Source: Rhizaria sp. SCN 62-66
Lineage: Eukaryota
Direction: 5' to 3'
Assembly (NCBI GenBank): GCA_001724265.1
Contig: MEDY01000019.1
Coordinates: 62,001 to 126,000, forward strand
Length of the DNA: 64,000 bases
Part shown: positions 18,693-61,500 of the stretch, in pieces
Layout of the letters: the number at the start of each line of letters is the position of its first letter
Position numbering within the stretch: position 1 is the first letter of the stretch
Program-made: the position numbers and the translations under genes
The notes under the pieces: generated by a model
What the model saw: only the letters and a program-made list of their open reading frames with translations
What the model was told of the DNA's origin: nothing
Databases searched by the model: none

Positions 18693-24850
<6,158 letters not shown>

Positions 24851-28239: not shown

Positions 28240-28480
28240 TGCGCAAACTTCTTCTGGAGGCTGTTGAGAGAGACAGAAGAAGAGATATATCAAAAATATT
28301 TTAGTATAATATTAAAACCAAGAGATTATTACCCAAATCAATGTTACACTTTCTATAGTGCTGCAAATGTTGCAGGCACTCAAGCTTTGCCGATTTGTGG
28401 AGGGGACGCCGAAGTGGTGGGAGAGCAGGTCTTGATAATTGACTAAGTTCATTTGTCGGATATTGATCGTCAACAGCATC

Positions 28481-36971: not shown

Positions 36972-37506
36972 GGGTGGGGACGGACCGACGACGCGGACAG
37001 GCAGTGTTTGCAAACGAAGGGTGTTGAGGATTCTGGTTTGAGGTACACCTAGCGCCTCGAAGGTAGTAGCTGTGCAAGTGTAAAAGAAGATAAAAGAAAA
37101 GTACAGTTAGAAATATCCGGAGAAATTCAAAACAGTGAGTTTGACGGAGACATGATCGCGCTTTGAAGTGAAACAAGTTGCCCGTTCGTTACCACTTCTC
37201 GCCTCTGCAACCTGCTCAGTCCGCCGCATTTCTCCCGATTGCTTCTGGCGCCTCGTTCGCACCGCTCGCGCCGATGATTAGAAACAGGGGGAGACTTCCG
37301 TCATTGCTTTCAGTTTTTCAATATGCTGCTTATGCGCTACTTTTCTACCGTCATGCAAAATAGTATCTTCAAAATATCCTATATCTCTCTAAGTCAGCCT
37401 CATCTTCCGTTCACCTATTTTCACTGTCTCGCCCCTTCGCAGTGCTTTCTTTCTTCGTTTGCACTTTTTTTCTTTCTGAAAGCGTTTTTTTCTACTCCCG
37501 CGCGCG

Positions 37507-40500
37507 ATGGGCTGCTCCGCCTCGATCGTGGCGCCGGTAGAGTACGTCGTCCAGCCCGACCGCAAGCCGCGCGTGGAGCTGCTATACGGCTCCGTGGCGC
37601 GGACCCCATGGAGCGACCGTCTGGTGTCCAAGTACATCCCACGCCACATCTCCTCGCGCTTTGCCTTCGAGCCGCTCGGCTCGCACTTGGTCGAGCCCGA
37701 AGTCGAGCACTTCGAGGCCGCAGTCGCCTTCATCGATGTCTCCGGCTTCACCAAGCTGTCCGAGATGCTGGTGCGGCAGCACGGTAAGGGCTTCGGCGCC
37801 GAACAGCTCAACACCCTCATCTCGGAATACTTCGACAAACTCATCGAGATCATCGAGTTCTTCGGCGGCGACGTGATCAAGTTTGCCGGCGACGCGATGC
37901 AGGTGCTGTGGCGCAACCCCTACATCCCGGGCTCTGCCGTGCGCGGGAGCCTGCTCGACACACGCTTCTGCTTCCACCCGCCGCCCGCGCGCACGCCGGT
38001 TGGCCCCACGCTCGCGCCGACGCCGCACGCGCACGCGCACCCGCACGCCCACGGCCACGGCCACGGGCAGCGCGGCAGCTCGTTCAGCGGCCACGCCGGG
38101 GGCTCCTCGGTCTACCACGCGCAGGACAGCAACGACGCTGCGCCTGGTCGTGCCAGCCTCAACAACAGCAGCAGTAACAACGCTGGCGGCGTTGTCTACG
38201 GCCCCCCGCCGCCCCCCGGCTCCTCCGGCAGCGGCAGCGGCAGCCTGAGCACCCCCACAGCCGCATCGTTGTCGCATCAGGCGGTCGGCGATGACATTCA
38301 GCACGACGCGGCGCCATTCGCACCACCATACACGCCCAGCAGCGGCGGCGGCTACGGCGGCTTCGGCCCCGGCCCGTCTCCCAGCAGCGCCGGCCTCGGC
38401 CGCGGGCCCGGGCGCGGGCGCGGGCACGTGCGGTCCGACTCGACTGCTGGCTCAGTCATCTCGGCCGTGTCTTCGACCGGCCTCCCACGGCTGCCGCTGC
38501 CCGCGCTGTCGCGCCCGGCCACTGTGCTGCCATACGGCAGCGGCGCCGCCACGCTCGCCGGCACCAGCCTCTACAGTGGCGGCGGCGTGGCAGGCCGCAA
38601 CAGCGTGGCCGACTCGGTGGCGTCCTCGGCCGCTCTGCCGCCGCTGACCATCACGCGCAAGCCTACGTGGGGGCCGGACCTCGGCGCGAGCGCTCCGCAG
38701 ACCCTCGGCGGCGGTGGCTCCTTTCCCGACTTGCACGCCCCCCCGGGCGGCGCCGCCGGGCGACTGCAGACGCAGATGCAGGGCCGGCGGAGTCTGCAGC
38801 GGCCGCGGTCTCGCGACCGCCGCTCGGGCTATGGCGGCGGCAGGAGCTACGGCAACGGGAACGCTGCGGTGGACAACGAGGAGGAGGACGAGTACGACTC
38901 GAGCTACGATCACGACGACGACGACCATAGCACACACGGCGGCGCCACCGGCAGCAGCATCAGCGGTTTCGACCACGCCGTCGCGCCCCCGACCCCATTG
39001 GCGGCCACGGCGGCTGCGGCTGCGGCGGCGGCGGCCGCGACGACCAACGCGGGCAGCATTAACAGCAACGGCAACAACAACGAAGACAGCGAGTCAGAGA
39101 TCCTCGAAGACCTGTACAACAGCAACATCAACGGAACCTTCAACAGCAACGGCTCCTTCACGAGCGCCGCCGACGGCCCCGGCGGGCCCGGCGGCGGCGG
39201 CGGCGCGCGCGGCACGTTTGCGCTGACGGCACCGGTGCAGGCGGAGCGGCCGCCGCTGCGCTGGGACTCGAGCCGCTTTAGCCTCGGCTTCACGGGCTAC
39301 TACCCGGTCCCGATTGTGACGGCGATGCTGGCCGACGACGCCTGCACCGCCGCCGCCACGGCTGCCGCGGCCGCGGACCGCAGCTCAAAGAAGATCAAGA
39401 GGAAGCTGGAGAAGGAGCGGCGGCGCCTGGAGAAGGAACACCGCCACCACCTGCATTGCCAGCACTATTACGAGGAGCGCGTGGCCGTCGACGCGGCGAC
39501 CAACGCGGGCATTCCCGTCGCTGACACCGACTGCGCCACCTTCGCGCGCAACAACGCCGCCAGCAGTGCGAACATGCGCGGCTACATCAAGCCCTCGGTG
39601 GTGTACGTGCACCCGCTGCGCTTCGACTCGGCCAAGCAGCAGGACGGCGTCGATGTGCCCACGGTCACCAAGGCCGTCGCCGCGGCGGCCAAGGCCGCTG
39701 CGGAGGCGGCGGCGGCGGCGGCGGCGGCCGCTGAGGAGGACGACAGCGACGACGACGGCGCCACGACCGACGGCGACGGCGCCGGCGACAACAACAACAA
39801 CAACAATAACGATTACACAGACAACAAAGGTGGCGCGAAGAACAACAACGGCAAGAAGGCCCGCGCCACAGTGGCCAACGCGCCCGGCGGCGGCGGTGGT
39901 GGTAACAAGTTAAGCCGCGGCCGCGCCGCGATGGCACCCGCGCCGTCGCTGGCGCCCAGCGCGTTCGAGGCGTGCGCGGAGGCTGCCGCGAGCGAGGCCG
40001 CCGACGCGCTGGTCACGGCGTGCTTCGCGAGCCACTCGGGCGGGTACGCGGGCGACGCGAACCACATGGGCCACGCCGTGACGGCCGACGGGCGCGAGTT
40101 CGGGCTGCTCTCGGACGCCGCGCTCTACCCAAGCGTGAACAACAACAACAACAACAGCAATGGCAACGGAAATAGAAACCGCTACGGCAACAACTACGGC
40201 GCCGCCCGCAATGCTGGCACAGGCGGCGGGCACGCGGACAGCGGCGGCGACGACGCGGCGGCAGGCGACGAGTCTTGGAGCAGCAGCAGCGGCGACACCG
40301 GCAGCGAGATCGAGTCAATTTCTTCTGATTCAGCCGAGAGCTTGCTGAGCGACTTCGACTTCGGCTACGCGGACCCCAACGCGGACGACGACGACATTGC
40401 CGACGACGGCGACGACTACGACCCTGACGGCGACCATGGCCGCGGCGGCGGCGCCGACGGCGACGAGGGCGGTCTCTACGCCGTAGCGCGCGCCGCCAAC

Positions 40501-43500
40501 GCTGCGGCGGCCGCGGCGGGGAACCCGCGGCTTGAGAGGCAGCGGATCAGGCGCGCGCGCCGTACGCGCCGGCGGCGCCGCCGCGAGGAGCGCCGCGCGC
40601 GCTCGCGCGCGCTCGCGCTGCAGTCGGGGCCGGGCGCTCGGGCGCAGCTTACGCCCGGGCCCGGCGGCCGCCGCGGCACGCCTCTTGTCAACAGCAACAA
40701 CAGCAACACCGCTGACTTTGCGTCCCCGACAACGACGGTGGCGGCGCAGCTGGTGACCGGCCGCCGCAGTCTCGAGGACGACGGCGACGGCGACGGCGAT
40801 GCAGACGGCGACGGCGACGGCGACAGTCTGGACGATGAGGAGTCCAACAACGACAACGACTGGGGCGGCAACGGCGGCAACGCGGTGGGCAACGGCGCCG
40901 GCAGCAGCGCGTCCGCGCAGCAGGGCTCGAGGAACGACAGCGCGAGCGCGGCCGGAAACGCCGCCGGCGCCAACTCAAGCTCCGACATGGGCACCGGCAC
41001 TGGCACGGACACCGGCCTCGGCCAAGGCGGCTCCGTGGCGGCCACGGGCGTCGGCAGCAGCTCCGGCGCGCTCGCGGCCGGCGGCGGCGGCGGCGGCGGC
41101 AGCGCGGCGCTGGACGGCTCGCACCTGGCCAGCAGCGGCCGCCTGCCCGGCGCGCTGCCGCTGCAGTCGATCACCGCGCTGCGGCGCGCGCAGCGGTGGC
41201 GCCGCACCGCCTGGGAGCGTGCACGCACGCGCTTCGCCGCCAGCGGGCTCGCGGGCCGCGGGCTGACGTTCGCGGCCGACGGCGCGGCGCTCGGCTTTCT
41301 GACCTCGCCGCGCGCGTCCTACGGTTTCGACAACATGCCGGGGCTGCTCAACTCGCCGCTCGCGGCAACCGCAGGCAACAACAACAGCAACAGCAACGGT
41401 AGCAACAACGGCAGCTCGACCGCTCTCGTTCCTGCTGGCGGGAAAAGCTCTGCGTCCCCCCAGCAGCAACAGCGGCAACTGCAACAACAGCAACAGCAGT
41501 CGCAGCAACCCAACGGCCGCTCGCCCGGCGCGGACGAGGTGATCGGCCCCGACGGGCTGCCGCGCTTCGTGCGCACGGACCGCCGCGGGCTGCTGAACCC
41601 CGCGCACCGCACGCTCACGGCCGCGCCGCCGCCGCCCGCCGCCGCGCAGGCTGCCAGACACAAGGCCGCCCCCGGTCTGCGCGGCGTGGGCGTGATGAGC
41701 AGCGCGGTCGGCGGCGGACACCTGCTGCCGCTGCGCGTCGGTCCGCAGCGCTTCCACGACGGCTTCCTGGACCCCGACTTCGTGCGCGCCAACGCGGCTG
41801 TGTACGCGCACCGCGTGCGCGACGCGCGCCGCCGCGCTGCCGCCTTCGGCGCCACCGTGCTCTCGCACCAGCCCGTCCCGCTGCTCATGCTGCTCGACTC
41901 GGCGCACACGCAGGTTCGCACCGCGCCCGGCGCCGCGGGCGCGGTCGGCGCCTCTGTCAGCAGCGGCAGCGGCGGCGGCGGCAGCGGCAGCGGCTGCGCG
42001 GCCCCGTGCGGCTCGCTGCCCTGCGGCGACGAAGACTATGACGACGGCAGCAACACCGCGGCGGCGGCCCGTGCACGCGCGCGCAATCGCGCCCGCGGCC
42101 GCGCGGGCGGCGACGGCGGCGAGGGCTACCATTGGCTCTCTGGCCGGCCCGTCACGCGCCTGCAGGACCGGCTGCGGGTCGAGGAGAAGCGCGGCGGCGT
42201 CTGGGCCGTCAAGGGCCACCAGCTCATCCAACTCACCTCGGCCGCGGCGGCCGCGGCCGCCGTCGCGCTGGCGGCGCGCTTGACGGCGGCGCACGTGGCC
42301 GCGCAGGCGAACAAGGTGCACCAGGAGCACCGCGCGCGCACGGGCGCCGCCATCGCCACTGCGGCCGCGGCGGCGGGCGGCCGCGCGCTCCCCGCGGCGC
42401 CCGACCCGGCCGCCGTCGCCGCCGCGCTGGCTGTGCGGCTCGTGCCCGCCGTCAAGGGCGACGCCAAGGCCCCGCTGGTTCCCGTGCCGTTCCCCAGCCT
42501 TAACGGCAGCGTGTACATGCCGCTCGCCAAGGCCTCGGGCTTCTGGTTCAACGCCGTGGGGTTTCTGCAGCGGCGCCTGATGCACAACCTGCGCCGGCTG
42601 CGCTGTACCGCCGCGGGCAAGGGCGCGCGCATGCACCCGGGCGCGGGCTGGCTGGCCGAGCAGCAGCAGCGCTTGCAGCGCCGCGCGGCGCGCAAGGCGG
42701 CGCGGGCGCGCGCGCGCGCTGCCAGCCGCGGACAGGACGGCGGGCAGGAGAGCGTCATCTCGGGCGACGGATACGACTTCGCGGAGTCTGTCGGGCCTGA
42801 CGGCGACGCGACGAGAGCCAACAAGAAGGACAAGAAGGACAAGAAGCCCGGGAAGATCGCAAGTTTCTTCAAGCGCGTGTTCGGGGGCAAGAGCAAGGAC
42901 GGCAAGGACAGTAAGGACAGCAAAGACACGGCCAACGCTAGCGCCACCGGCGACAAATACCGCGCCAAGTCCCCCGCGACGGCGAGCAAGACGCGCCGCC
43001 CGCACCCTCGCGCGCCCGAGAGCTTTGCGTCGCTGCACACCGACATTGACCTGGGCGGCAAGACGGGGCCCAGCTCCGGCGCCGGCACCGGGACCGGCAG
43101 CGGCGACGGCGACGGCCGGGCGCAGTCGCGCGGCGCGCTCAGCGGCTCGGGCCGCGGCGGCGGCGGCGGTGACTCCCCGTCGCCGCTCGAGTCGCCGTTC
43201 TCGCAGCAGTCCGACTTCAGCGGTACGTCCCCGATCAGCGGCTCGAGCAGCGACGTGTCGAGTGTGTACACGCACCCGGCGTACTTCCCTCCGCCCGTCG
43301 CCGCGGCGCGCATGCGGCGCCTTGAGATGGAGAAGCAGGCGCGACGCCAGTACGGCGTGCCCGACACCAACACCGCGCCCTCGCGCCACAAGAGCAGCGC
43401 GAAAACCACGGACCAGCTCTCGAGCGCTAACACCCACACCAACAGCAACACGGCCAACGACACTGGCGCGAACGTTTCCCCCGATAAGCGCAATCGCAAC

Positions 43501-46500
43501 ATCAACAACAACAGCAACACTAATAACGCGAATGTGAACGCGAACACTGGCGCTGGCACTGACGGCCCCCGCCGTGGCCCCAGTCGCCGTCGCCGCGCGG
43601 AGGCCGCGTTGGACCGCGAGATGGCCCTGGAGCGCGAGCGCAGCGGCGCGCAGTATTTCCACGAGCCGCCCGTGCGCGTGAAGCTGATGTCGCTACACGA
43701 GCTGACGCTGCGCGCGACACTGTGCTGCCTCGTGCTGCTGCAGCACCAGAACGCGCTGGTGCCCGGTGCCATCGGCTCCGCGCTGCGCCTGCACATGGGC
43801 ATTGGCGCCGGGCTCTGCTCCGGGTTCATGGTCGGCGGGTTCCGTCGCTCCTGGGAGTTCTACATCGCCGGCGACCCCGTCACGGACATGTCGCTGGCCG
43901 CCAACGAGGCGCAGGCTGGTCAGTTAGTGTTAGCCCAGTCCGCGTATCACTTCATGCGCGACCGCGTGGTGGGCCACCCGACGCGCGACGACCTGTTTAT
44001 CGTCCAGCGCCTGCGCGGGCGCTACCGCGTGAAGCCGCACCACGCGGCGCTCAAGCCGCGTGTGAGCGCGGACGAGGCGCTGCTGGACTTCGTGCCGCCG
44101 CTGATCCGGCATCGGCTTGACACGTCGACGTCGACGACGTGGCTCGCAGAGTACCGCACCGTGACCGTGGCCTTCGCCAAGCTCGTGGGCGTCGACTACA
44201 GCGACCCCTGCGCGCTGTCGCGGATCCAGCTCGCCGTGCAAGTCATCCAGGCCGTGATCAGCGAGCACATGGGCTCCATCGCGCGGCTGCTGTGCGACGA
44301 CAAGGGCACGCGGTTCAAGATCGTGTTCGGAATGCCCTCGCAGTCGCACTCGGATGACACGGTGCGCGCCGTGCGTGCGTGCTCGGTCATGTCCAACATC
44401 ATCGCGCAGTCGGCCACGGGCCTGCGCCTTGCCATCGGGGTCGCCACAGGGCCCGTTTTCGTCGGAAACGCCGGCTCAGAGCAGCGCTGCGAGTACACCG
44501 CCGTCGGAAGCACGGTCATTCTCGCCGCGCGTCTGTGCGAGAAGGCACACGAGCACAACTACGGCGTCGTCGTCGAAGAGCTGACGTACAATCTCTCCAA
44601 CATGAGCATCAGCTTCGCGCAGCTGCCGTCGGTCATCCTCAAGAACATCACCACGGCGGTGCCCATCTTCCGCCCGATGACGCTGCTGGAGTCCGCGGAC
44701 GGCGCGCTCAGCGCGCACGGGCTCAGCTCGTCTAACGTCTCGGTCTACACCGGCAACAGCAGCAGCAGCAGCGGCAGCGGCAACGGCCTTGATGCGGGCG
44801 GCGACGGCGACAATCTTAAGGACGACACCTTCGACTCTAACGCGGATTTGCTCGCACGCGGCTTCTCCGCCAGCAGTCTCCGTAGCGGCGCCGGGATGGC
44901 GGCTATGCTCAACAACCGTGTCTGGCCCGGCGGGCTCGCGGGCGGGCCGCGCGGCACTGCGCTCACGGCCACGGTCCCCACCACTGGCGGGTCGCCGGTC
45001 TCGCGCGGCCCGAGCAGCGCCAGGAACAGCTCCGTGCGGGGCCTCCGCGGCATCGGCGTCGCCGGCATTGGCGGCAGCGGGCTCTCGGTGACGCTGCCCG
45101 ACGCGGACGCCGGCCTCGGCGCCGCCGATGGCGCGCTGACCGAGCGCGGCCCGCCCCTGCGGCGCCGGCGCGGCAGCGTGATGTCGATGACCACCAACTC
45201 TAACTCGGCCTTCGAGGGCGACACGGACCAAGGCAGCGCGCTTATGTGCTATGTCGCTGACCAGCGCGGCGAAAACGGCTTTTTCATGCCCGAGCAGTAC
45301 GGCTACCTGCTACGGTGGCAAGAGTTCGACTACTTCCGCTGCCGCATCCTCTGCTGCGGCTACGTCGACCGGTACGCCGCTCCGCGCATGCAGGGCGGGC
45401 TGCTGAAGCTCGAGAACATCTTCGAGTCCTTCGGCCGCGCCATCACTTCGTCCTCGATCTCTGACTCTCGCTCCGACGTCGACGCCTCAGGCTCCGACTC
45501 GGCCTCGCGCTCGGGCGCCGGCAACGGGCTCGGCAGCGGCCGCGGCGGCGGCACGGGCGGCCTTGGCAGCGGCGGCAGCAACAGCGGCGCACATGGCCAC
45601 GGCGGCGGCTCCACCGCGTCAGGCGACTCGACGGACGACGGCGAGGACATCGGTTTCCCCGTCATCGCCGACGCGCCGACCGACTTGCCGTCTCCGATGC
45701 CGCCCCGGCGCGGCATGATCTTCGCCGGCTCCCCCGCGCTCAACGCGGTCGCGGGCCCGCTGACGGCTTCGACGCCCTTCACGCTCGACTCGCAGCCGCT
45801 GCCACTGTCGCTGCCGCCGTCGTAGCCGCGGACTCAGCTGCAGCCGACGCAGTCCAAGAGGCGCAGTAACGTGTTTTTCCCCGACGCCGCCTCCACCTCA
45901 GTGTCTGGGCATGGAAGCGACGCGATAATGCTTCCAGGCGCTGTTGCCGCAAACGATTCCACACCGCACGTGTCTGCACTGACACTCGACGTGCGTTCGC
46001 CGTCGCAGCGCATGCTCACCCCACCGCAGCCGCAGCATCAGCTTAGACAGAAGCGCATCTCGACCGGCGACGACAACGCCGCGTCGCAGCAGCCCGATGT
46101 GTTCAACCCGTACTTGGCGTCGGGAGACCTTAGCGACCCGCTGCAGACCCCCGCGGGCGGTGCGGCTGATATCGCCGGCATGTCCCTCGACGACGCCGCT
46201 GCGATCTCTGCATCCAACGCCGCAGTGGTCGCCGCAGCCGCCGCGGCCGAAGCCGCTGCTGCGGCTGGGCTGGCGGGCGTCTCGAACGCGCTTCCGGCCG
46301 CGAGCGCTGCGCCTGCTTTCCTCTCCTCGGCCGCAGCGGCTGCGGCGCTGGCCGGCGGCCGCTTACACTCCGGCGGCGGTCTCCCCGCGCCGCCGCGGTC
46401 GGTCGCGGCCTCGGTGATCAACCACCTCATCCGCGGCACGCAGGTGCCGCCGTCGCTGCAGCGCGCGCTCGAAGGCTTCACCAGTGTGCACGCGCGCAGC

Positions 46501-49500
46501 GCGCTGTCGGTCAAGGGCATGTTTCTGCTGACGGGCATCGAGGGCAACTTCGACCGCGCGCGCAGGGAGACATACCTCGCGCCCAAGTACCTCACCGCGC
46601 TCGGCAAAGCCAACCACCGCGGCGTGGCGGCGGGCGGTGCGGCGGCCGCGGCGGCGCTCGCTGGCGCGATCGCGCGCGGCGAGGCGCGCGTGCAGCTTGA
46701 CCACGAGCTCACGTCCCCGCTCGCCGCGCTGGTCAACGTGCTCATCAACCACAGCTCCGAACGCACGCGCGACGAGGCGCACCGCGTGTATCTGCCGCAG
46801 CACCTGATCGCGCACTTTCACGAAGTCGTCGCAGCGTACCCCGGCGAGGACCTCGTCGAGCTCAACGGTGTTGGACTCCTAGCGCCGCCATTGACGCACA
46901 ACGGCGTCGACCTGACGCGCGAGACGGATGTGGTGCTGCCGGGTGGCGACGGCGTGTGCCGCCTTGTCGAAACCGTGTTCGAGTCCAAGGACGTTGCGCA
47001 CTTGCACGCGCGCTCCAAGCAGCTGCTGCAAGCGTTTCTGAACCACCCGTCACTGGCGGGCAGCGCGGACCCGGCGGTGCTGGCTCTGCTGCTGGCGATG
47101 CCGCCGCCGCTGCACGGGCACCACACTGCGCAGTTCGCGGGGCAGCTGGGCGCGGCGTCGCACCTGCTGTTCGAGAGCGACGCCGAGCGCGCCGCCACGC
47201 AGGTCGCCGCGGCGCCCACGCCGTCGCTGCAGGAGGCCTTTGAGGACGGACTCGTCTCGGCGCCCGCCGCGCGGTGGCTCGCCGCCGCCTGGCACGAGCA
47301 GGAGACGCTCTGGATCCAGGAGCAGCAGCAACAGCAGGAGATTCTCTCCTCGACGATGGCCACCGCGCTTGCGTCGGCGCCGCTGAGCTCCATCCTGCAC
47401 ACACCCGGCGCGCTCCTGTCCCCGCTAGCCGCGGCCAACGAAGTTGCGTCGCCGACCGACATGGTGACGCTGCCGTCGAATCACCTCATGACATCGCCGG
47501 AGGTCCTGCTGGCGCAGCTGCGGCAGCGCATGGAGGTCCGGAACAGGTTTGGATTGCCCACCAGTGGACCGCCGCAGGCGCTGTTTTCGCCGCCGCCACC
47601 CCCGCCGCCACTGCCAGTGCGCACCACGGCCTCGGGCGTGACCTACACCGGCGCCCCCACGCTGTCGATCCGCCGCAGCGCGCGCATCGCCAACGCGGCG
47701 TTCCGCGCGCACTTCAACCTGACGTGTATCACGGGCATCTCCGTCGGCATGGGTCTGGTCATCAACAGCTCGTCCGCGATCGCGGCCAACGAACTGGGCG
47801 CGGGCGGCGCACCAACGTTTTACGCCACGCAGCTGTGCGGGCAGATCTACGGCCAGGCGGGCGTGCACTCGACGGTCAAGTCCACCACCGCGCTGCACGT
47901 GAACCCGTTCCGGCTGCAGCAGGACGCCGACCAGGACGCTGCGGGCGACGCCACGGGCTTCGGCGCGCTCACCTCGACGGCCGTGGGCGGCGCTGGCCGC
48001 GACCGCAGGCGCGTGGCACAGATCTTCTCGCGCTCCGGCTTTGCGGGCATCTTTGCCGCAACCGACTCCGAGGGATTTTACGCCTCGGGCGGCGGCCGCG
48101 GCCGTGGCTCGCGCTCCTACGCTCTCTCGCCGGGCGGCTCCGCGGGCGGCAGTGCGACGGGCGCCGGCATGTTGGGCCGCCCGGGCACCGCGTACGTGCT
48201 CACGGCGAGCGGCGCGCCGGTGGAGCCCGTCATGTCGCGCGTGCTCGTCGCGGGCCCCACGCTCGCGCGCAGCGGCTTCAACGCTGCGCCCACGTACACG
48301 GCGCCCATGTCGACCGTCGAAGTCAACCCGCAGCGGTACCACGGCCGCACCGCGCTGTCGGCGCTCGTTGCGGCGGAAGACGACAAGTCCGCCGCGGCCT
48401 CGGTCTCGGCCACCAACGCCAGTGCGATGTACCAGTGGTCCTACGCGGGCGGGCTGGGCGCGCTGGTGCTGGCCGACGGTGCGACGGCGCACATGCCGGC
48501 CATCTCCTCGCTCTCGCTCGGCAACGGCGTGCGCGTGCCTGCTTTCTTGCTCTCCGCGGTGAACCGGTACTTCGTGCCCAACCCCATGCACGCCGCGCAC
48601 ATCGGGATGGGCGGCAATGGCACCCCGGACGCGCAACGCCGCGGCGACGGTGCGAGCAACCGCGGCAGCGCGCGGTCGACCAGCAACGCCGCCGCGGCGT
48701 CCGGGCTGGTGAACGTCGACCGCACACATGTGCTGCACGGCTCCGGCGGCGTCAACTCAATCACGCACATGTCGTCCTTCTATGGCGACGCGGGCGAGAC
48801 GTACGTCACCTTCCAGCAAGTCATCTCGCAGGTGCTCGAGGAGAACGCCGAGCCGCGCGTGCTGCGCGCAGTGCGCACGCGCCAGGCGCTATGGTCGCTT
48901 GGAGTGCCCACGTCCAGCGCTTCCGAGACCGGCCAGGGCACGCTTAGCGCCAGGCTCGGCTACACTCCGCGCTCGGGCGGCGGCGCGGTGGGCATTGCGG
49001 CCGCCGCTGCCGCCGGGCTCGCCGCCGCCGTGGCCGCGTCAAGAGGCCCGGGGGACCGGTCCGGCGCTGGCGGCGCGAGCGAGGCCGGCGTTAGAGGGCT
49101 GCGCAGTATTCTCCGCCGCGGCAGCTTCACCGGGATGCGCGGAGACAGCGACGCGTTGCACGGCGACCTCTCCGACCCCGCGCTGACTGCGGGCGCAGTG
49201 CCGTCGACCGCGGTCGCCACGTCGTCGCTGCTGTCGGCTTCCGCGGCGTTCGACTTGCTCGAGATCGACGAGAATGAGACGCCCGCGCGCATGCTGATGA
49301 AGTTCCTCCGCTCCTCGCAGTGGGCCGCCGCGCGCGAACGCACCGCGACGACGTCGCGCAGCGTGCTGCACTCGATCGGCTTCTACTACAAGCCCGAGTT
49401 CGACCCTTCAGTCGACTCACCGGGCGCTGAGCGCACTCTCGTGCAGCGCGGTCGTGTCGACGCTGCTCTCGCAGCAGCCGAGGACAACGCCGCCGGCGAA

Positions 49501-52500
49501 GACGCGCTGCTGCGCCCGGCAGCCTCCGCCGGCGGGCCCGGCACTGCGACGGCCATCTTCACGAGCGCGCTGCCGACCGCGACGTACAAGCTGGGCGGGA
49601 CCGTGGTGACCGTGCACGCGTACAACGCCACGCTCCTCCAGCTAGACAAGTCGTGGGCCATCAAGGCCGCGATGGCGGCCGGCGTGCCGCCGCCCGCCAG
49701 CGCGCTCGCTGGCACGCCACCCGCGACCGCGCGCACGATGGCACGCTCCAACGCGGTGATGACTGCCCTGGCGCGGTCGGACATGCGCATGCGCCCGCGC
49801 CCCACCGCGCTGCGCGCGACGGACCTGATCCCGCGCTGCATCACGTTCACGGCGCTGACTTGGCGCCAGGTGACTGAGAGCATTGTGCGCCCAGCGACCG
49901 TGTTGCTCAGTCTGCCCGAGCGCGTCACGCGCAAGCAGGCGAGCCCCGCGCACTCTGCGGCGTCCTCCGTGGGGGCGGCTGACCCTGGTCTGCTGCCGCG
50001 GCTGCCGCCGATCGACCTCTCGGCCACCGAGGGCACTGCGCCGCGGCACGCCTTCGTCTTTGGCTGTCTGCCAGGAGAGGACTTACCCGCCGGCTCGCTG
50101 CACTCACTCTCGCTGTCTGAGCACATCGCGCAGCTCAACCCCATGCGGCTCTCCCCGACGCAGCAGCTGCAGCTGAACATCATGACGTCGCGTCTGCGCG
50201 CGCTGCGTGCGTTCACCATTTTGCGCCCGCCGACCGCGACCGACTACGCGTGGAGCACGAGCTCGACCTCGGCGACCCTGCTCATCAAGCACGCCATGTC
50301 GCTCAACCCGAACCCGCTCGCGCGCCTCTCGGCGTGCTCCGGCGTCGAGCGGCTGCTGCGCCTCATCCAAGGCCTGCTCGAGCGTTCGCCGGTCCACACC
50401 GCGTACATGCACTTCTGCGGGCTCAAGGCCGTGTGCCAGGTCGTCAACCCGCCGCAGTGGGTCGTCACGCCCTCCGCGGCCACGCTCGGCGGCTACGTCT
50501 ACACCGCGCAAGGCAAGGCCGTACTCTTCACGAGCAAGAACGAGGCCTTTCCCTACGGCCTCATGGCGCGCCGCCGCCGCCTGCAGCTCAAGCGGCTCGC
50601 GTTTATCGCACGATATGCACCGGCAGTGCTCAACTCGCCGAACCTCGATGGCGAGGACCCCACGGCTGCCGCCGAGGCCGGTCTCCCGGAGGCTGGGCTG
50701 GGCTTCTCGGCCGCGCTGTACCGCAAGGTCGTGCGCGTGGCCGTGGAGCGCTACTCGGACCACGCTCTGGCCACGGCCGTTGCCGCTGCGGGGCGCGCGA
50801 ACATCCCCCGCGCGCCCACAAGCGCCAACGGCAACGTCTCCGGCTCCGGCGGCGGCGGCGGCGCGGGCGGCGGCGGCATCAACACCAGCGCAGCCGCCAG
50901 CGCCGCGCGCGCGTGCCTGCTGCCACAGTCGGCGACGGGCACCGCAGCCGCGGTCGCCGCGGGCGGGTCGTCCCCGTTCCTTGCGCTGCGCCGCGGGCTC
51001 ACTGCTGCGGCCGCGGCGCCGACCGTTTCGAGCGCCAACGCGGCCGCGCTCGCCGCCGTGGCCGCGGTGTCGGCTGTGGCCAGCGCCGCGGGCTCGCTCA
51101 CCCCGCCCATGCTGCTTACCAGTCTGTCCGGTCTCGCGCCGGGGCCCGGCAGTGTCGCCGGCGGCAGTAGCGCCAGTAACGGCGGCAGCGGCGGCAACAG
51201 CGCCAGCGCCAGTGCGGCGCCGTCGGCCCCGTCGCTGACGGGCAGCGTGGACGAGCCCCCACTTGTGTCCGCGCGCATGCTGCAGACGCTGCACCACTAC
51301 GCCGACCTGACTGGCGGCACGCTCGCGTCGCTGTCGCCCACGGTCGGCACATCGATCGGCGACGACCTTAAGGCGTGGGAGTTCGCCGCATCGCTTCCCT
51401 CAGCGCTCACGTTCGCCGGCCTGTCGATGTTGTGTCCGCGCAACGCATCGCTCGACCCCGCAGACCTGTCCGCCGCGGCGACGGCGCTCGCGGGCGGGGC
51501 GTATGCGCCGCTCACTATGCCCAACAAGCGCCGCGGTGCCAGCGGTCTCGGCGACGAAGACAGATCTGGCTCCGGCCTCGCTGGCGACGGCGCCAGGCTA
51601 AACAACAACGACAACGACAACCTGTTGTGGCCCAACGGCGACATCGCGCTGCCAAACGTCACCGCGGGGCTTTTTGCCGCCGCGCCGGAGCTTACTGTGC
51701 TGACCAACGCCGGGCTGCTCACTGCGGACCCGACGTCGACGACCGACCTCGCATCCTCGCTCACGCTTGCGTACGACCGCTGGGACTGCTCCCCCGACAT
51801 GCCGTCCGCGCTCGCCGTGGCCTCGCCCAAAGTCACCATCTTCGCTGGCGGCCGCCCATCGGGCGCCCCCGTGACTGCGACCGCGGCCGGGGTGGCGGCG
51901 CCCGCGTCCCCGCTGTTGGCGCCGCAGCGCGGCTACGGCATCCACGGCGCGATGCCCGCGAACAAGCGACCGAACGATCCCGTGGCGCACCCCACGCGCG
52001 AGTCGATGCCGTCGCCCGCCGACGCCGACGCCGCGCTGCTGCGGCTGGGCGCGCTGCTCACGGGCGCGCCGCGCGTCCCGCTGCCGCGCCCCGCCGCCGC
52101 GCTGCCCGCCGTGCTCGCCGTGTCCAGCGCCGTGCCCTTCGGCCGCGACCCCGAAGTCGCCGAGGTGCTGCAGAACCTGTCGTCGGTGTGGCAGACGGGC
52201 CGGTCGCGCATTCTGCACCTCAACAGCTCAGCGGGCTCGGGTCGTTCGCTGGTGATCGCGCTGTTTTTGGCCGCGTTCGCGCACCCGCCGGACATGAGTC
52301 GGTACGTGAGCAACACGCGCGAAGGCACGGACCTGCGCATGCTGCCCCCCTGCATTAGCGCGTTTATGGTGCAGGCGCAGCCCAACGTGCAGTCCACGCC
52401 GTTCTTCGTCTACAAAGACCTGCTGTTTGACCTACTGTGCACGCTGCGTCCGCCGTCGTCGAACTCGGCGACGGTCTACGAGAGCGACGACATGCTTAAC

Positions 52501-55500
52501 TTCTCGATCGAGTCCGAGGCGCGCGTGCGTTCTTACGAAGAGGGCTTCTCGCGCCCCTCGCACGACTGCGCTGCGGCCGCCGCTGCCGCCGCTGCTGCTG
52601 CTGCCGCGGATCGCTTTTCCGGCAAGGCCTCGCCGCGCAGTCGCCGCAACGCCATCGGCGCGAAGTGTCCCTTGGCGCGCGCGTCGCCGCCGACCCGCGG
52701 CGAGGCTGTCGCCGCGCTGGCCTCGCTCGAAGTCGCCGCCACCGCGCCCAGCGCGCTGGCGTCTGCCGCCGCGCGCACGTCCAAGCTCAACACCGTCACG
52801 GCGTACGTGCTGCAGAACCTGAACCACGACCCGGCGGCGCGCGGACTGCACCCGCGCGCGCTCGCGGCCCGCATCCGCAAGCAGCTGGCGCGCCGCCCCA
52901 CGGTTGCGCCCACGCTGCCGTACGCGCTCCGCGGCGGGCGCGGCGCCGCGGCGGCCGGGGCTACTGCGGCGGCCGTCCGGAGCGCCAAGGCGCCCGCTGC
53001 GGCTGCGGCCACGAGCAAGGGTGCGACTGTTGCCGACGCGGACGACGAGGACGACGGCTTTGACGAGCGCACGTTCGGCGAGCTGGAGCGCGACTATGTG
53101 CAGACGCTGCTCCGCGAGCGCTGGCAGTCGAAGCCCCTCCCGGGCATCAACAACGTGCTCTTGGGTCTGCAGGACAGCGTTGACCTCTACCACCGCAGGC
53201 AGGCCATGCAGGCGCAGATCGTCGCGTCGGCCGTGCACGGCGGCAACGCCTCGGCCGCGGCCGCTGCGGCTGCCGAGCTGACGGCGGCGCACCAGAAGGC
53301 ATGGCAGATGCGGCGCGCGCGCCGCAAGACTGAGGCCGCTGCGGCCGCATCTGCAGCCGTGTCAGCCGCCGCTTCTTCTTCAGCCACTGCTGTAAACGGC
53401 CTCAATGCGGGTGCGCACGGCAGCAAGGTTAGCGTTTCCGCTTCCTCGAACGGCCAGCAACAGCAACAACAGCAACAAATGCTGCAGAATCCGTTAGGTA
53501 AGGCTGCTGGCCGTCAGCGCGCCTTTTATCAGAGTTCTCTCAACAGCCAGGCAAGCAGCACCAGCAATTCTGACCCGAAGCCCGCCGCTCCAGTGCGCGA
53601 GGGTCCGTTTGAAACTCACGTGCGCCGGTGCTTGCCCCCAAGCTTACACAGATGGATTCCGCTGCTCAACGACTTCCTGGACACTTCGTTCATTGAGGAC
53701 GAGACTACCAAGAACATGACTGCTACTGAACGTGCCGATAACCTCAACACGCTTCTGTTCGCCATCTTCGACGTGACCGCGGTTCCGATCCCGGCTGAGA
53801 TGCAGATTGCGCTCGACGACCTCGACGAACAAGTCATGTCGTCTCGGCGCCAGGCTGGCAAGCGTGCGCGCGCAGCGGCGGCTGAGACGGCGGCTGCTGC
53901 GCGCGAAGACCTCCGCGTGTCCTCGAGTGTGGACCTCGAGTCGGCGCAGATCGAGCGCGGCGGGCCCGAGGGCCGCTACGGCGCCGTGCTGACACAGCAG
54001 ACGGGCCAGTTCACCGGTAAGGCGTTTTACGAAGACGTGGAACACTTCAGCGTGCGGTTCAGGGAGATCGCGCTCGCGACACCGGCGCAGCCGTTCGTGC
54101 CGCTGAGCATCCACGTGCCGCCGCCCGTGACTGACCCCGCGAGCGGCGTCTCGTGTGCCGCGGCCGCGATCGCCGCGGCGTCCGCGACGTGGGCGAACGA
54201 GACCGTGGGCGGGTGCGCCAGATCGGGGTCGCGTGGCGCGGGCGTGCTCAAGACGCTCGGCACGCGGTTCGTCATTCCCCGTGTGATCGTGGTCACGGGC
54301 GCCGAGTGGCTGGACGCGGCGTCGCGCCAGCTGCTCACCGAGCTCGTACAAAAGGTGCAAAACATCATGCTCATCTTCTCGACGCAGCGGTATGAGCGCA
54401 ACCCGGCGACCAGCAACGCCGCTGCGGGCGCCGCCATGGCGACTCTCGCCGCGGCCACCGCCGTCGCGAACGGCACTAACCTCAACCCCAATGCATCTGT
54501 CGACGCCAACGGCTTGATTCCTGACGCGATTGACCCCGCCATGGTTTCCGCGTCGGCCGCATGCGCGTTCGGAGCGGACATCAACCACAAGTGCGACTAT
54601 AACGTGATGGTGCGCGTGAGCCGGCTGACGCTTGACCGGTGCGCCGCCATGGTGTTCTCGCTTTTCGGCGCCGTGCTGGGGCCCAACTACCTCACCTCGG
54701 TGCTGCACCGCGAGAGTGAGGGCCATCCCGGTGTCGTATTCGAGATGTGCAAGCTGATTGCGCAGTCGGGCGCCACGGTCACGCACGGATGGCTCGCGGT
54801 CGAGGAGCGCATGCTCTCGCGTCTCACTAGCGGCTCCGGCGAGTTCGTCGAGTCGCGCGTTACCGCAATGGTCGGCCAGATTGACCGTCTGCCGGTCGAC
54901 CTGCAGATCACGCTCAAGACGCTCGCCGTGCTCGGCCCGCGCGCCGGTCTGATGACACTCAAGAGCATCCACCCGACCACGAGCTCGGGGCAGATGCTGC
55001 TGAGCCAGTGCCAAAAGCTCATCAGCACTGGCCGCATCTACCACTATGTTGAGAACGGAGAGGACTCTTTTGCTTTCGCGCAATACTTGGCGAGTAAGGC
55101 AGCGTATAATCTGCTGTCGCTCGATCAGCGCCGGAAGATGCACCTGCTCTGCGCGCGCGCACTGCGGTCCGAACTCGCCTCACTGCGCCAGACTGACAGC
55201 GCGGCGCGTGTGGAGGCTCTGTACCACATCTCGCAGCTTCTCGCGGCTAAGTCTGTGCCGCTCGAGTTTGCGCGCGCCACCGCCGCAGCCGCGCTCGCTG
55301 CCGCTGCCAACGCCTCCGCGTCGGGCTTGACCACGATGCCCGCGACCGCGGCGGCGTTCTGCGACGCGTCGTCGCTCGCGCGGTCCCTGTTTGTGCACTC
55401 CGGCGCAGCGCGCGCGTTCAACCGCATCAACGCGTGCGAGGGTCACACCGAGTTCTCTTCGTCGACGCTGCTGCGCATGCTCGTCAACGCGCAAGTCATC

Positions 55501-58500
55501 GCGCTGGGCCTCACGCTGCCGTCGACGCAGGACCCTGACTTCGGCGTGCTGAACGACAACCTTGACCCGTATCTCGACGCAGAGGACCTCAGTCACATGC
55601 TCATTCTCGCTCTGCGCGCCCCCGTCAAGTGGCACTCTGCGCCTTGCAACGCGCACCCGCTGCCGTCGCCGGCGTCGCCCAGCCCCGCCGGCAGCGGTAG
55701 CACGCCGGCCGACAGCACCGCCGGGTCACGTCCGCTGGACATGCTCGACCGCTTCCGCGTGATGCGCCACCAGCTGCTGCTCGAGGCGAGCGCGGACGTG
55801 CTGGTCAAACGCTTGAGACTCATCCACGCGGCGCTGCGCTTTAATGCGCGCTATGAGGAAGCTGTTTCACCGACGGCAACTGCTGCCGCTGCCAATGCTG
55901 CCGCTGCTGCAGCTGCGGCTGCGGGCGGCGGCGCGACTGTCGGGGCCGCTGCCGCCGCTGCTGCTGCGAACGCGAGCGCTGCGGGCGCCGCCGCCGCCGG
56001 CAATCTGTTGCTGCCGGTGACGGACGCGATGACTCTTTACGCTGACATGATTTCTCTCTATCTCAAGGAGGGCTCACTCTACACGCCCAACGCGGCGCTG
56101 CCGCTGCTTTCTGCGGTGAAGAAGCACCAGGCGCAGCTTGTGATGCAGCTGCTCAAGGACCTACCGCCGCTGCCGCAGCGCTTCCCGCGTGCTAAAAAGT
56201 CCCAGTCGCACTCGCGCGCACCCACTACGCAGAATACGAGCAGTAGTGCGAGCACGGTTGCTGGCTCTAGCGCTGCCGCGACTGCGGTGGCAACGGCCAA
56301 CGCCCGCGCCACCACTGCCGCCTCCGCAGCCGCTGCGCTGACCACGGCCGCCGGAATCGCGTCCCCGACTGGCGTCTTCGGCGTCAACCGCAAGCCGCTG
56401 AGCGTGAGCGTGAGCGTGAGTGACGGCGGCCAACTGACCAGCGCAAACGATTTCGGTGACGCGTCCCCGTTTCAGCACCAGCAGCGGCAGCGGAGAGACA
56501 GCGCGGCCAGCGTCCACAGCGCTCTGTCGGGCGCGTCTGGCTCGAGCCACAGCGGCAGCCTCTACGGCGGCGGCCGCTCGGTCCGCGCAGGCAGCGTCTA
56601 CAACGCCTCGGATGCTGGCATCGACGTCATTGCTGATGCGGAGGTGCGTGCGAACGCGGCCACGAGAATTCCAGGCATGTTCGGCTTTGGCTTCGGTGCC
56701 GGTATGGGCGGGCTTAAGCCCAACGTCGTCGTTCCCTCGCTCGAAGTGCACGAGATGTACAACATCAGCACGTCTGCGCGCGACTACCTGACGTACGAGC
56801 GCCTGTCTCTGCACCTGACGCGCGCCCACGTCGAGCAGTCCGCGCAGCGCTACACGCTACTGGCGGCCACGCGCGCGCTCTCGTTTGAGAAGGACCGCTC
56901 CGCTGCGCTGCGGCTGCTGCACCGCTACGCCGACAACATGCAGGGCCGCAACCCGCTGGACGCGGCGCGCGTGGACGAGCTGCTGTCGCTGCATTATTCG
57001 CGCCACGGATTCCACCACGACTCACTGCCCTTCACCATGGCGTACCTCGCGCGCTGCGGCGTCCCGCTGCCGCTGCCGGGCTACCCCGTCATCGGCGCGC
57101 TCGTTGACGAGCTCATGGCGCCCTTCTACACCGACCCTGTGCGCAGGATGCTCGGCATTTACGTCTTCGCGGAGCCCGACATCATGCCCACCGCGGCCCC
57201 GCTCGGCGGCGCGCGCGTGTCTGCGTCCTCCACCTCGTCCTCCGCCGCAGTCGCCGCGGCCGCAGCTGCTGCTGCGACAGGCCCGAAAACTGCCGCCGCT
57301 ACAGCTACGAGTCCCGGCATCACCACCGGCGCCGGCGCTGGCGGCGGCGGCCACAGCGGCGGCGTCTCGCTGCTGTGCACCGAGGGCGACGTGATGAACG
57401 TGTCGAACCCGATCGTGCGCCACATGCTGCTGCTGCACGACTCGACGACGCTGCGCGAGGACTGCGCGCACCACGCCCGCAAAGTGCTCTCGCTGCTCAC
57501 GGGCAATATCACCTCCGCGCTCACGCGGCTAGTGCTCGCGCTCAAGCACTCGACGCAGCCGAAGCTGGAGGTGATTCCGGCGCACGAGCTCAAAGCCATT
57601 GCCGACGTCATGGCGTCCACGGCGACCACGTCGCTGTCGGCCGACGCGTACGCGCAGTGGGCTGGCGCGCTCTCCTCAGCGGGCCTGCACCTGGACCCGT
57701 CCGGCGGCATGCGCGTGACGACGATGCCGCTGCGCACGCGCTACCACGAGGCGCAGTCCGCCGCCTGCGGCTCAGACCCCGAGGTCGCGGAGGCCGACGG
57801 CGGCGGCAAGAAACGCCCCACGCCCGCGATGCCGTCCGACGCTGGCGACGGCGGCGACGCGGGGAACATCGACGCGAGTCTGAGCGGCGACAGCAGCTCC
57901 AGCGACTTCGGTGTCGCGCAGGTGCCCGGCACTCCTGCCGCGGTCGGCTCCCCGGCGCGCGCGAGCGGCACACGCAAGGACGGCGCTGGCGGCGCCGGGA
58001 ACTCGCAGGGGCTTAGCCCGCCTGGCGCGGGACAGACCCCTCTCGGCGGCAACGCAGGCTCTGGCGGCAACAGTCTTACGCCCTCACCGCGGCCTTCTGG
58101 ATCGACCCCGCTGCCGGAGCCCGCCTCGGCTGGCGCTGCTGTGGGCGCTGCGGGGGCTGCAAGCTCACACAGCGCGGCCGCAGATGCTGGTTCATCCTCG
58201 TCTTCATCGTCGTCGTCGTCGTCAGCCACGACACAAGGCCAGGCTGCTTCTGCTGCGGGCAACAACACGGCGTCCTCGGGCTCTGGCTCTTCTGCGCCGA
58301 CGACGACCTCCGCTGCCGTGACCGCGCCGGTGCTGCCGTCGACTCTCGTGACCGGCCACGGCCTCTATCAGCACGGCCCCGGCACCAACACCTCCGCGAT
58401 CCAGGCCGCGCTCGCGTCGGCCGTCGCGTTGCCCATCACGCGCGGTAACGTCGAAGTCGTGCGCAGCGGCGCCGTGTGGGACATCGTGCTGGACCAGCTC

Positions 58501-61500
58501 GACCGCCGCGCCGGAGGGATCTACTCCAAGGCCGCGCTGCGCACGCGCGTCGGCCCGGCAGGCACCGGGACCGCAGCCGCGGTTGCTGCCGCATCGGCCA
58601 ACGTCCCTGGAGCTGCTGCGGCCGCAATCGCCGCCGCCGCTGCAGATGCGCTATCTTTGCCCGAGTTTGTGCAGAACGCGATCCCGCCCGAGGTGCACGC
58701 CTCTGTGGTCGCGCTCTTCGTCCCGCCGCGCATTGCGCTGGGGGCGATGCGCATGACCGGCATGGGCTCACTCATGGCCTCGCAGCTGCGCCGCGCCGGC
58801 ACGCCCGCGCCAGAGCGGCCCGCGCTCGGTCCGTTCAACATCCTGCTGCCGTATTCGCGCCTTGCGCCGTCGCCGGCCCCCGGCGCGCCCGCTGGCGGAC
58901 ACTTCGCCAACACCGTCGCGTCGTCACTCACGCGGCCGTACTCGCTACACACCCTCGCCAGCGGCATCCTGCCCCACGTCGCGCTGTCTCCGGAGGAGCG
59001 CGTGCTGCTGGAGCGGCAGCTGCACCTGTCGCTCGCGGCCGTGCCCGCGCCCGCGCAGCGCGACGCGCAGGCGCTGACAGAGCGCTCGCTGATCGACGCC
59101 GCGGTGCACGTCCCCGGAGGCACCCACAGCGCCGTGGGCGCGATTCCCTTTGCGCCGGGCTCATTCGCGGTGCCGCTCGATGGCGAGGATTCGCCGGTGT
59201 ACGGATTTGGTGAGCGCATGCTGTTGCCGGTCGACGGGCTCGCGCGAGGATCTGCGGCGGCCGAGGCGTCGCTGCGGCCGTCGCTGGCGCTGCAGCTTGA
59301 GTACTCGACGGGCATCTCGGACACGAGCAGCGCGATGTACATCAACGTCGTCACCAAGAAGCTGCTTGCACTGGAGAAGATCCCCCCGTCGGTCGCCATG
59401 CATATCGCGCTGCGTTTCCCCTTTGCGTTCGACCTGGTGTCGCTACAATGCGCGCTCAACTCGCACCAGAAGCGTACGATGCACTCGGCGCAGCAGGCCG
59501 CGTCCGGTCTGCTGGGCCGCGGCGAGCAGCTCGTGACCGTGGTGAACATGGCGCGGCCGTACAACCGACGTCTGCTGAACCTCGCCGTGCAGTCGGTCAA
59601 CTCTGCCATGTTCCGCACGCTCTCCAGCGGCCGCGGCGAGGCTGCTGCGGGCCTGCTCAACCCGGGACCCAGCTACACCCCTATCGCGCGCGCGCTCGCG
59701 GCCTCGGCAAATGCTCGCAACGAGGAGATCTTCAAGCGCATCGTCGTGTTCTTCCGCCGCCTGCTCGGCTCGGTCGACGCGCGCCGCGTGTTCCGCGAGA
59801 CTGACCACGTTATTCCCGACTCGGTGCTCACGCGCGCACACGTACCCGCGCTCATGTGTGCCTTTGGGCCCGAGTTCCCACAGCTCACCGAGCAGGCCCC
59901 GAACGCGACTGCTGCTGCCGGCGCCGCCGCAGGGATGGGTGTCCAGTCGCCGCGCGGGCCTGCGGGCGTTGCCGGCGTCAATCCCTCCGGCGGCCTGCAC
60001 GACTGCGCGCTGGCGGCGATGCTGGGCACGCTCTCCGGCTTTGGCCAGCGCGGCATCCCCGACCCCGGGCAGATGATGGCGGCCGCCAGCGCGGTGGCTT
60101 CCTCGGTGTCGAGCCACATGATTAGCGGCGGCACCGTCGGCACCAACGACTCGCTGCTATCCGCGTTCGCGGGCGGGTACGTCGTCCCGGGCACCGGCGA
60201 GGTCATGATCCCCACGACGCGCGCTGAGACGATGTTCACGCGTGTGCTCTCCGCGATGAGCATCCTTGCGCGCACGCATACCGACAACGGCCGCGCCGCC
60301 GACGCGCTGCCGCTGATGTCCTACGTCGTCAACACGTACTCGCGCATCGTCGGCAAGTCGCGCCACTTCATGCGCTTCTTTTACTTCCACCAGGCCATTG
60401 CGCGGCTGCAGCTCGGCTTCCTGCGCCGCTCCCTCAGCGTCTCGGCCATCATCGCTCGCAGCGCGGCGCAGGACTCGGAGCACCTCCACGGCTTCCTGTC
60501 GGCTGTACTGCGCGCGTCGGCGCTGACGATGCTCGAGGGCCCCAGCGCTGCCTCGGTCGACGCGCTGCGGCACGCGCTCTTTATGATCCAGGAGCTCCGC
60601 ACCATCTCCGGCATTCACGCTTTGACGTCGACCGTGCTGTTCTTCTCGCTCCATGCTCTGCGTTCGCGGCAGAAGCTGCTGCTCGAGTTCCTCAACACGC
60701 TCAACGACTGGTCGCTGCTGCCTGCGACGGGCAACTACGTGCATGTCTACATCACGCTCTCGCTGCTGTTCCAGCACGCGATCGACGACCCCAACGTGTC
60801 GCCCTTCGCGGCGGCGACCGCGCGGCATTTCGAGTCCGCGTTCGGGCCCGTGGTGGAGATGGCGCGTCTGCACCTGTCGGGCGCGGCCGTGATGCGCGTG
60901 CTCAACTCGCAGCGCCGCATCGCGCACGACGCGCTGCACATGGCTGCGGCCACAACCAAGATGGCGACGATGACGGCGGCGCAGACGACGGCGACGTTCA
61001 TGGACGCGAGCGACGACGTCAGCAGCGACGCGCGGTCCACGCGGCCGCAGTCGCGACAGCCCTCGCCGCCGGCCACCGCAGACCCCAGCGAGCTGGTGAG
61101 ACGGGACGGGACCATCGACGTGTGGCTGCCCTCGGCCGTCCCCGCGTCGGCGTCCGCCGCGGCCGCCACCGCCGCTGGCGCCGCGAACCCTGCCGCCGTC
61201 CCCACTGCGGGCGATTCCCCGGGCGCGGTGCGCCGCAGAGCTATGTCGACGAGCTCGATCCACGAGTCGCGGCCGACAAGCGCGACCATCACGACAGCGG
61301 ACGCGAGCACGAGCACGTCGCCGCTGCGGGCGCTGCGCGGGATCGACCCCACGCTGCTGTCGTACACGCGAAGCAGCGATAACGCGACGCCGATGCTCAA
61401 CAAGAGCAACAGCGTTGCAATGAATCGCAGTGGCGCCAACAGTGTCCGCGGTGACAACTACGGCGTTGAGCCGCCCTCTCATCTCTTGAAGGACGCCAAA

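Follow-up and report, generated by a model that had tools for sequence, protein, structure and literature searches.

An in-frame TAG codon in the middle of a giant gene raises a simple question: does this codon end a protein, or is it translated? The gene lies in a 64,000-nucleotide (nt) stretch of contig MEDY01000019.1 (positions 62,001 to 126,000 of the forward strand; assembly GCA_001724265.1, deposited as Rhizaria sp. SCN 62-66), hereafter the window, to which all coordinates below refer. It encodes a relative of the sAC-like proteins—mammalian sAC/ADCY10 among them—and the TAG falls between the part that carries two cyclase homology domains (C1 and C2) and the part that carries a nucleoside triphosphatase (NTPase) and a helical region. 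Drawing on this one 64-kb window and its genes, about 15 in number, we argue that TAG is probably translated throughout the genome, through reassignment or efficient suppression, and that it is used very rarely; the locus is a good lead for a new lineage in which UAG is a sense codon or a leaky one.

The codon occupies 45823-45825 (+) in the context CTG CCG CCG TCG TAG CCG CGG ACT CAG CTG CAG, and the translation across it runs ...SQPLPLSLPPS*PRTQLQPTQS, in both cases letter for letter as given in the initial annotation, a model's reading of the same DNA. The upstream frame is open over 37480-45825 (2,781 codons from stop to stop), and the frame past the TAG, described earlier as open for more than 6,000 codons, continues for 6,058 codons to the window end. 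The gene is thus made up of two parts:

37507..45822, plus strand: upstream part of the giant gene, 2,772 codons from ATG to TAG, starting MGCSAS and containing both cyclase homology domains (protein P0007)
45826..63999, plus strand: downstream part in the same frame, 6,058 codons, with no stop before the window end

Read through the TAG, these form an open reading frame (ORF) of at least 8,831 codons (2,772 before the TAG and 6,058 after it, where the window ends). The MGCSAS start (37507-37524, +) resembles what we take to be an N-terminal myristoylation/palmitoylation signal.

Coding composition carries on across the codon. The proportion of G or C at third codon positions (GC3) is 0.90 upstream of the TAG and 0.86 downstream; counted in rows of 15 codons, the row that holds the TAG and its successor each have G or C at 13 third positions, with a mild dip near the TAG only at 45880-46059 (7-11 of 15 per row). 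Continuity of this extent greatly exceeds what chance would produce. The overall G+C content (GC) of the 150 nt after the TAG is 0.62, and the flanking sequence contains neither an AT-rich stretch nor anything donor-like, so that the lack of an AT-rich untranslated region (UTR) or spacer, already remarked upon, holds. The initial annotation had named a transcript end just past the TAG together with an independent start downstream, or a splice junction there, as what would speak against decoding; a search for an AT-rich spacer or intron-like sequence at 45823-45825 found none. A contig from another study (run X3) spans 44994-46317 with 0 differences from the window, and three contigs, the longest of 220,695 bases, have each yielded a recorded protein of 2,772 aa that stops at the TAG, which makes an assembly error at 45823-45825 unlikely.

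Do the two parts belong together? Alignment to two sAC-like proteins places the following modules, where P0003 is the translation of window positions 52000-57999 and aa denotes amino acid residues:

37624..37911, plus strand: N-terminal half of C1 (aa 49-144 of P0001); BLASTP match to P0029 residues 8-99, E 1e-18
43693..44679, plus strand: C-terminal half of C1 and the entire C2 (aa 2072-2400 of P0001); BLASTP match to P0029 residues 106-430, E 3e-51
52132..52503, plus strand: Walker-A region of an AAA_16-type NTPase (P0003 aa 45-168); BLASTP match to P0009 residues 904-1041, E 9e-7
54283..55260, plus strand: Walker-B-like stretch and helical module (P0003 aa 762-1087); BLASTP matches to both P0029 and P0009

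Pfam finds two Guanylate_cyc stretches and an AAA_16 domain on the single chain of P0029 (1,368 aa), and P0009 (2,439 aa) likewise joins a cyclase to an AAA_16 domain, which is its residues 904-1041. C2 is matched by PF00211 (aa 2225-2386, E 1.9e-10), although in the Pfam scan of the giant protein AAA_16 did not reach E 0.01. The Walker-A region has a weaker BLASTP match to P0029 (E 0.12), and the region at 54283..55260 matches P0029 residues 594-630 (E 0.004) and 649-832 (E 1e-13), and P0009 residues 1120-1158 (E 0.23, weak alone) and 1459-1626 (E 3e-8). All of these P0003 pieces are collinear with P0029 and with P0009. The alignments bear out the earlier division of the gene into a cyclase half and an NTPase/helical half, as well as the statement that such modules normally follow the cyclase pair, which is their order on the P0029 and P0009 chains; as judged from sequence, the two halves are one gene by ancestry.

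The giant protein shares with P0029 and P0009 the collinear order of C1-C2, an AAA_16/STAND NTPase and a helical region, and departs from such proteins in several ways. It would be at least 8,831 aa long if the TAG is translated (1,368 and 2,439 aa in P0029 and P0009), some 2,500 aa separate C2 from the NTPase, and the gene has one in-frame TAG, 373 codons past C2. Its P-loop, SAGSGRS at P0003 aa 77-83 (GSGRS at 52234-52248, +), has Arg in place of Lys; the Walker A consensus is GxxGxGK[ST], so the canonical lysine is absent, and while NTP is perhaps bound, its hydrolysis may be impaired. C1 is also interrupted, just after KFAGDAMQVLW, by a low-complexity insert of ~1,930 aa rich in Ala, Gly, Ser and Asn (37912-43692, +). 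Within this insert a contig of run X5 has an in-frame insertion of 21 nt behind 39534 (+), a length polymorphism between populations.

The giant gene is not alone in having a TAG inside its frame. Across the window's translated coding set (about 17,800 codons) stops number exactly three, each of them a TAG, with no TGA, no TAA and no frameshift. Besides the one at 45823-45825, these are:

27330-27328, minus strand: second in-frame TAG, in a SET-domain (SMYD/AKMT-like) gene running from ATG 28239 to TAA 25317-25315
6156-6158, plus strand: third in-frame TAG, in an NPF/His-rich gene running from ATG 5445 to TAA 8499-8501

In the SET gene, the N-terminal SET motif (GKGRGLFALRPF...) precedes the TAG and the NHSCxPN and GDEITISY motifs follow it. 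Joined, the halves score 23.8 bits against Pfam SET (cut-off 22.4), while the N-terminal part scores nothing and the C-terminal part 16.2 bits; an alignment to SMYD2 is weak but collinear (aa 134-160 and aa 740-766 of the SET protein), and there is a weak match (E 0.065) to the Toxoplasma apical complex lysine methyltransferase (AKMT). All 100-nt windows over 26300-28199 have a GC of 0.51-0.72, with no intron-like trough, and the site at 27328-27330 is identical in contigs of runs X3 and X4. Like C1 of the giant protein, this SET domain is split, here by ~580 aa.

The third TAG stands in the His slot of a His-x repeat (HGHAHG-TAG-GHAHGHSHG) and is the weakest of the three cases, because local GC3 there is low, at about 0.45. 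The part of the protein before it (5445-6155, +) has three NPFAP(R)P motifs, in appearance like EH-domain ligands, then poly-Ser and His-x repeats. In both of these genes the TAG falls mid-unit, within the SET domain and within the His-Gly repeat. Taken together, the sense-frame TAGs affect 3 of 15 genes, and beyond them the frame stays open for 670, 780 and at least 6,058 codons, at a GC of 0.59-0.62; no intron-like or AT-rich sequence was seen beside any of them, and all lie within low-complexity segments, none at a conserved position.

Other apparent cases did not survive scrutiny. A fourth candidate TAG, at 28644-28646, belongs to a CIR/CWC25-like gene, where it serves as the acceptor site of a genuine intron. 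Counting adjacent ORFs (neighbouring open frames of at least 120 codons with one stop between them) was also abandoned as evidence: such pairs, of which there are 44 (TAG 20, TGA 16, TAA 8), abound in the off-frames of this GC-rich DNA, so that only the three sense-frame cases count.

At gene ends the picture is reversed. TAA closes eight and TGA six of the 14 identifiable ends, among them that of the SF-assemblin gene (TGA 35938-35936, -), and TAG closes none. Beyond the 13 TAA/TGA ends checked, the frame closes again within 3-34 codons, and the following 150 nt have a GC of 0.35-0.49. Genes lie on both strands, in exon blocks mostly of 59-82% GC, with introns and intergenic DNA at about 35-45% GC. 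Introns were checked in three genes, those for prolidase, the CIR-like protein and CDP-diacylglycerol synthase; they are AT-rich, measure roughly 120-200 nt, start with a donor of the GTACG, GTGCG or GTCCG type and end in a CAG or TAG acceptor. One ORF, 32878-32123, was discarded as a gene end (TAA), being exon 1 of the CDP-diacylglycerol synthase gene with its TAA inside an intron.

Coding continuity, module order, two further genes with TAG and the lack of TAG at all 14 ends together make TAG decoding the best-supported reading, on indirect evidence, and the recurrence of the feature in unrelated genes, combined with the lack of TAG ends, points to a trait of the organism and not of the giant gene. 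The suggestion in the initial annotation that the TAG is decoded is thus supported in part, and not as a device peculiar to the giant gene.

How might this work? Genome-wide, TAG would stand for an amino acid, leaving TAA and TGA as stops. Either a cognate tRNA would decode it, which amounts to full reassignment, or it would be suppressed efficiently, which would make it an ambiguous, leaky codon. We infer that ribosomes insert an amino acid at each TAG; the giant gene would then be one ORF of at least 8,831 codons, comprising a split C1, C2, a TAG-bearing spacer, the AAA_16-type NTPase and the helical region. The rarity of TAG and its confinement, in all three cases, to low-complexity segments fit better with a young or inefficiently decoded sense codon than with a long-established one.

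Several observations weigh against this reading. With only 14 gene ends, the lack of TAG is no more than suggestive: if TAG is assumed to make up 20-30% of gene ends under a standard code, the probability of 0/14 is about 0.04-0.007. A free synonym of CAG should be much commoner than TAG is (3 TAG against 478 CAG, with CTG at 699 and TAC at 299), and its frequency, 3 in about 17,800 codons or about 1.6 per 10,000, is far sparser than in known UAG-sense lineages. With this codon usage, TAG would be the outcome of ~67% of random nonsense substitutions, and all three being TAG (P about 0.3 for three of three) is accordingly weak evidence; moreover, all three lie outside conserved residues. No tRNA gene was found in the 64-kb window, and hence no cognate tRNA-CUA; nor does the eRF1 gene lie within it. 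Comparison with other assemblies covered the two sites at 45823 and 27330. Among the RNA contigs listed, none crosses any TAG; those from a poly(A) metatranscriptome (X6) fall within the upstream ORF, at 42660-43233 and 44654-45241.

In addition, neither protein nor contig searches found an orthologue extending over any of the TAG sites. A word-index protein search with read-through residues 2200-3400 gave no match among proteins of 4,857-15,455 aa, and one with a 1,000-aa junction query returned, among lengths of 1,751-5,000 aa, the window's own ORF only. HMMER, giving one best stretch per row, made 9,702 matches to a 1,200-aa junction query at E<=0.001, and in each of the 150 matches listed, bar P0007, that stretch falls within the first ~360 residues of the query, ahead of the TAG. 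The 5,195-aa protein P0015 has no significant similarity to the downstream ORF, and the junction query yielded no confirmed locus in either metagenome_contigs (350 pattern matches) or genome_contigs (279).

If TAG is translated, which amino acid does it specify? The Gln/Pro-rich surroundings of the first TAG had led the initial annotation to favour Gln, a preference that local sequence patterns do not support: in the window's proteins, S-x-P is filled by Leu 18 times and by Gln twice, and G-x-G by His 12 times and by Gln three times. In the His slot of the third TAG, the paths CAC->CAG->TAG (Gln) and CAC->TAC->TAG (Tyr) would fit equally. As all three sites are of low complexity, no amino acid can be assigned. 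There is precedent for UAG as Gln and for UAG as Leu (PMC5304391, PMC11687900).

The main rival explanation is that the three TAGs are recent nonsense mutations marking young pseudogenes or truncated alleles, so that the giant gene would now make its 2,772-aa cyclase part only. There is one stop per gene, the bias of nonsense substitutions towards TAG (67%) is in its favour, and the TAGs sit in poorly conserved low-complexity segments and are otherwise absent from about 17,800 codons. Yet with 3 of 15 genes affected, that same set contains no frameshift, TGA or TAA, and the long downstream ORFs retain full coding composition. The same TAGs also recur, with almost no other variation, in contigs of other studies, whose runs date from 2017 and 2025: variation is near zero in X3 for both TAGs compared and in X4 for the one at 27330, and contigs so close to invariant across studies make a high load of segregating nonsense alleles unlikely. 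Nonsense mutation also leaves the 0/14 TAG terminators unexplained, and we consider it an unlikely account of the three genes.

A normal stop with programmed read-through in particular genes, giving a short cyclase-only product and a long isoform, seems to us improbable. A C follows the TAG in the giant and SET genes, a base that weakens termination after a stop codon, whereas a purine follows in 10 of 15 TAA/TGA rows, and the short cyclase-only product would hold both catalytic domains. Regulated short and long forms of this kind, analogous in outcome to truncated and full-length mammalian sAC, had been put forward in the initial annotation as the alternative to decoding; the proposal is weakened by the same feature in two unrelated genes, above all by the SET gene, whose short product would be without half its catalytic domain. 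None of the three TAGs has a CARYYA-type 3′ context (they are followed by CCG CGG ACT, CCG GTG TAT and GGC CAC GCT) or a stable structure downstream (folding z-scores 0.20, -0.87 and 1.41), which argues for a trans-acting, genome-wide cause; the lack of TAG at all 14 gene ends also tells against read-through as a property of single genes.

Two separate genes in the same frame, the downstream ORF being expressed alone (for example from the ATG at 45928), would be a highly improbable arrangement. An ATG does occur 35 codons past the giant-gene TAG, and in the SET gene within 10 codons, but there is no AT-rich spacer and no promoter-like or UTR-like DNA at the sites, whereas the 150 nt after the stop at checked borders have only 35-49% GC; cyclase and NTPase modules share one chain in P0029 and in P0009, and in the other two genes a domain and a repeat unit would be divided between neighbours.

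It is likewise highly improbable that the TAG is spliced out of the RNA as a minute intron of unusual type, or altered there by editing, for instance from U to C. GT occurs before the giant-gene TAG at 45819 and 45822, and AG after it at 45837 and 45843, but nothing at the three sites is similar to the checked introns, with their ~120-200 nt, AT-richness and typed donors, and an intron was rejected on composition and on the form of donor and acceptor. Such U-to-C editing of a nuclear transcript has no precedent that we are aware of, although no search was made for one. Sequencing or assembly error, conceivable in that the window comes from a metagenome assembly, can practically be set aside given the identity of X3 over 44994-46317, that of X3 and X4 over 27328-27330, and the three contigs with the protein ending at the TAG.

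The organism itself can be described in outline. Public runs containing this stretch come from bioreactor, wastewater and activated-sludge metagenomes (seven studies), with runs X1-X3 sharing 0.97-1.00 of the words sampled, and from the one poly(A) metatranscriptome, and the source is an uncultured, GC-rich, intron-bearing protist. Lying head to head with the giant gene, the SF-assemblin gene (35936-37106, -) has one AT-rich intron; the SF-assemblin of a related organism (P0158), encoded on a 25-kb contig, is 74% identical. A search with P0158 returned only a 3,366-nt Joint Genome Institute (JGI) metagenome contig (L001), which has the start of this organism's giant gene, with an ORF translation identical to that of the window. 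The nearest clusters to SF-assemblin are apicomplexan or ciliate and those to prolidase bacterial, both weak leads. Affinity to the alveolates thus has two weak leads, the SF-assemblin clusters and the SET protein's match to Toxoplasma AKMT, and we claim no taxon.

Two further features of the window deserve mention. A minus-strand block of three genes (18693-28311; encoding 1,395 aa, 500 aa and the SET protein) has a GC3 of 0.64-0.70, against 0.8-0.9 elsewhere, and for two of its three genes the Pfam scan found no family. A contig of run X4, elsewhere nearly identical to the window, differs at many sites in 33816-33912 (+), nearly all of them 3 nt apart and at third codon positions of an MBOAT gene; a divergent allele could account for this, as could a repeat copy kept under purifying selection.

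What would TAG decoding mean? Nuclear reassignments of UAG alone are known from a handful of lineages, and in all of these UAG is already a common sense codon. If our reading is right, UAG has gone from gene ends and is nearly unused inside genes, an intermediate stage predicted by theory and rarely observed. In its fullest form—a UAG-sense code at a very early or inefficient stage, with UAA and UGA as stops, in a GC-rich wastewater protist with weak alveolate leads—we offer this only tentatively, at somewhat less than even chances. It would represent a natural snapshot of a codon-capture or ambiguous-intermediate step of stop-codon reassignment, in a lineage with none known, in which UAG was lost from gene ends and has been reappearing, at ~1.6 per 10,000 codons, in disordered segments only. 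In practical terms, gene prediction under the standard code would break up genes of this organism, much as the cyclase ORF is on record as a protein of 2,772 aa that stops at TAG, and the proteome would accordingly be mis-annotated, including an sAC-like protein of at least 8,831 aa. A limited full-text literature search found no report of UAG as a sense codon in any eukaryote from wastewater or activated sludge.

Known systems in which a stop codon is translated give the window its setting. Programmed read-through includes tobamoviruses, with UAG-CARYYA, and structure-stimulated cases. The window resembles these in having an in-frame UAG followed by a long open frame, with C after UAG at two of three sites, and differs from them in having neither the CARYYA context nor a stable downstream structure, and in affecting three unrelated cellular genes. 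It is also unlike a typical ciliate genome, having GC-rich exons, introns of ~120-200 nt and a contig, up to 220 kb long, that carries many genes. With the ambiguous codes of Condylostoma, karyorelict ciliates and Blastocrithidia, as far as the accounts consulted describe them, it shares the translation of a stop codon inside genes; under those codes, however, the codon doubles as a terminator towards the 3′ end of genes, whereas in the window TAG ends none of 14 and is the only stop affected, with no in-frame TAA or TGA.

Closer parallels come from nuclear codes with UAG as a sense codon. In the rhizarian exLh UAG is Leu and in Iotanema spirale it is Gln, while UAA (and UGA) are still stops (PMC5304391); Panek et al. 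(2017) counted 384 in-frame UAG codons in 71 exLh genes (PMC5304391), and McGowan et al. described UAG as Leu or Gln in phyllopharyngean ciliates, with ‘widespread usage’ (PMC11687900). Set beside what these sources report, the window differs from exLh, with its several UAG codons per gene, in having a TAG about 1.6 times per 10,000 codons, and from UAG-sense codes more generally in that its TAGs occur only in low-complexity segments where no amino acid is assignable. What it shares with such codes, as described there, is in-frame TAG in otherwise intact genes, gene ends made up of TAA and TGA only, and UAA as the commonest stop.

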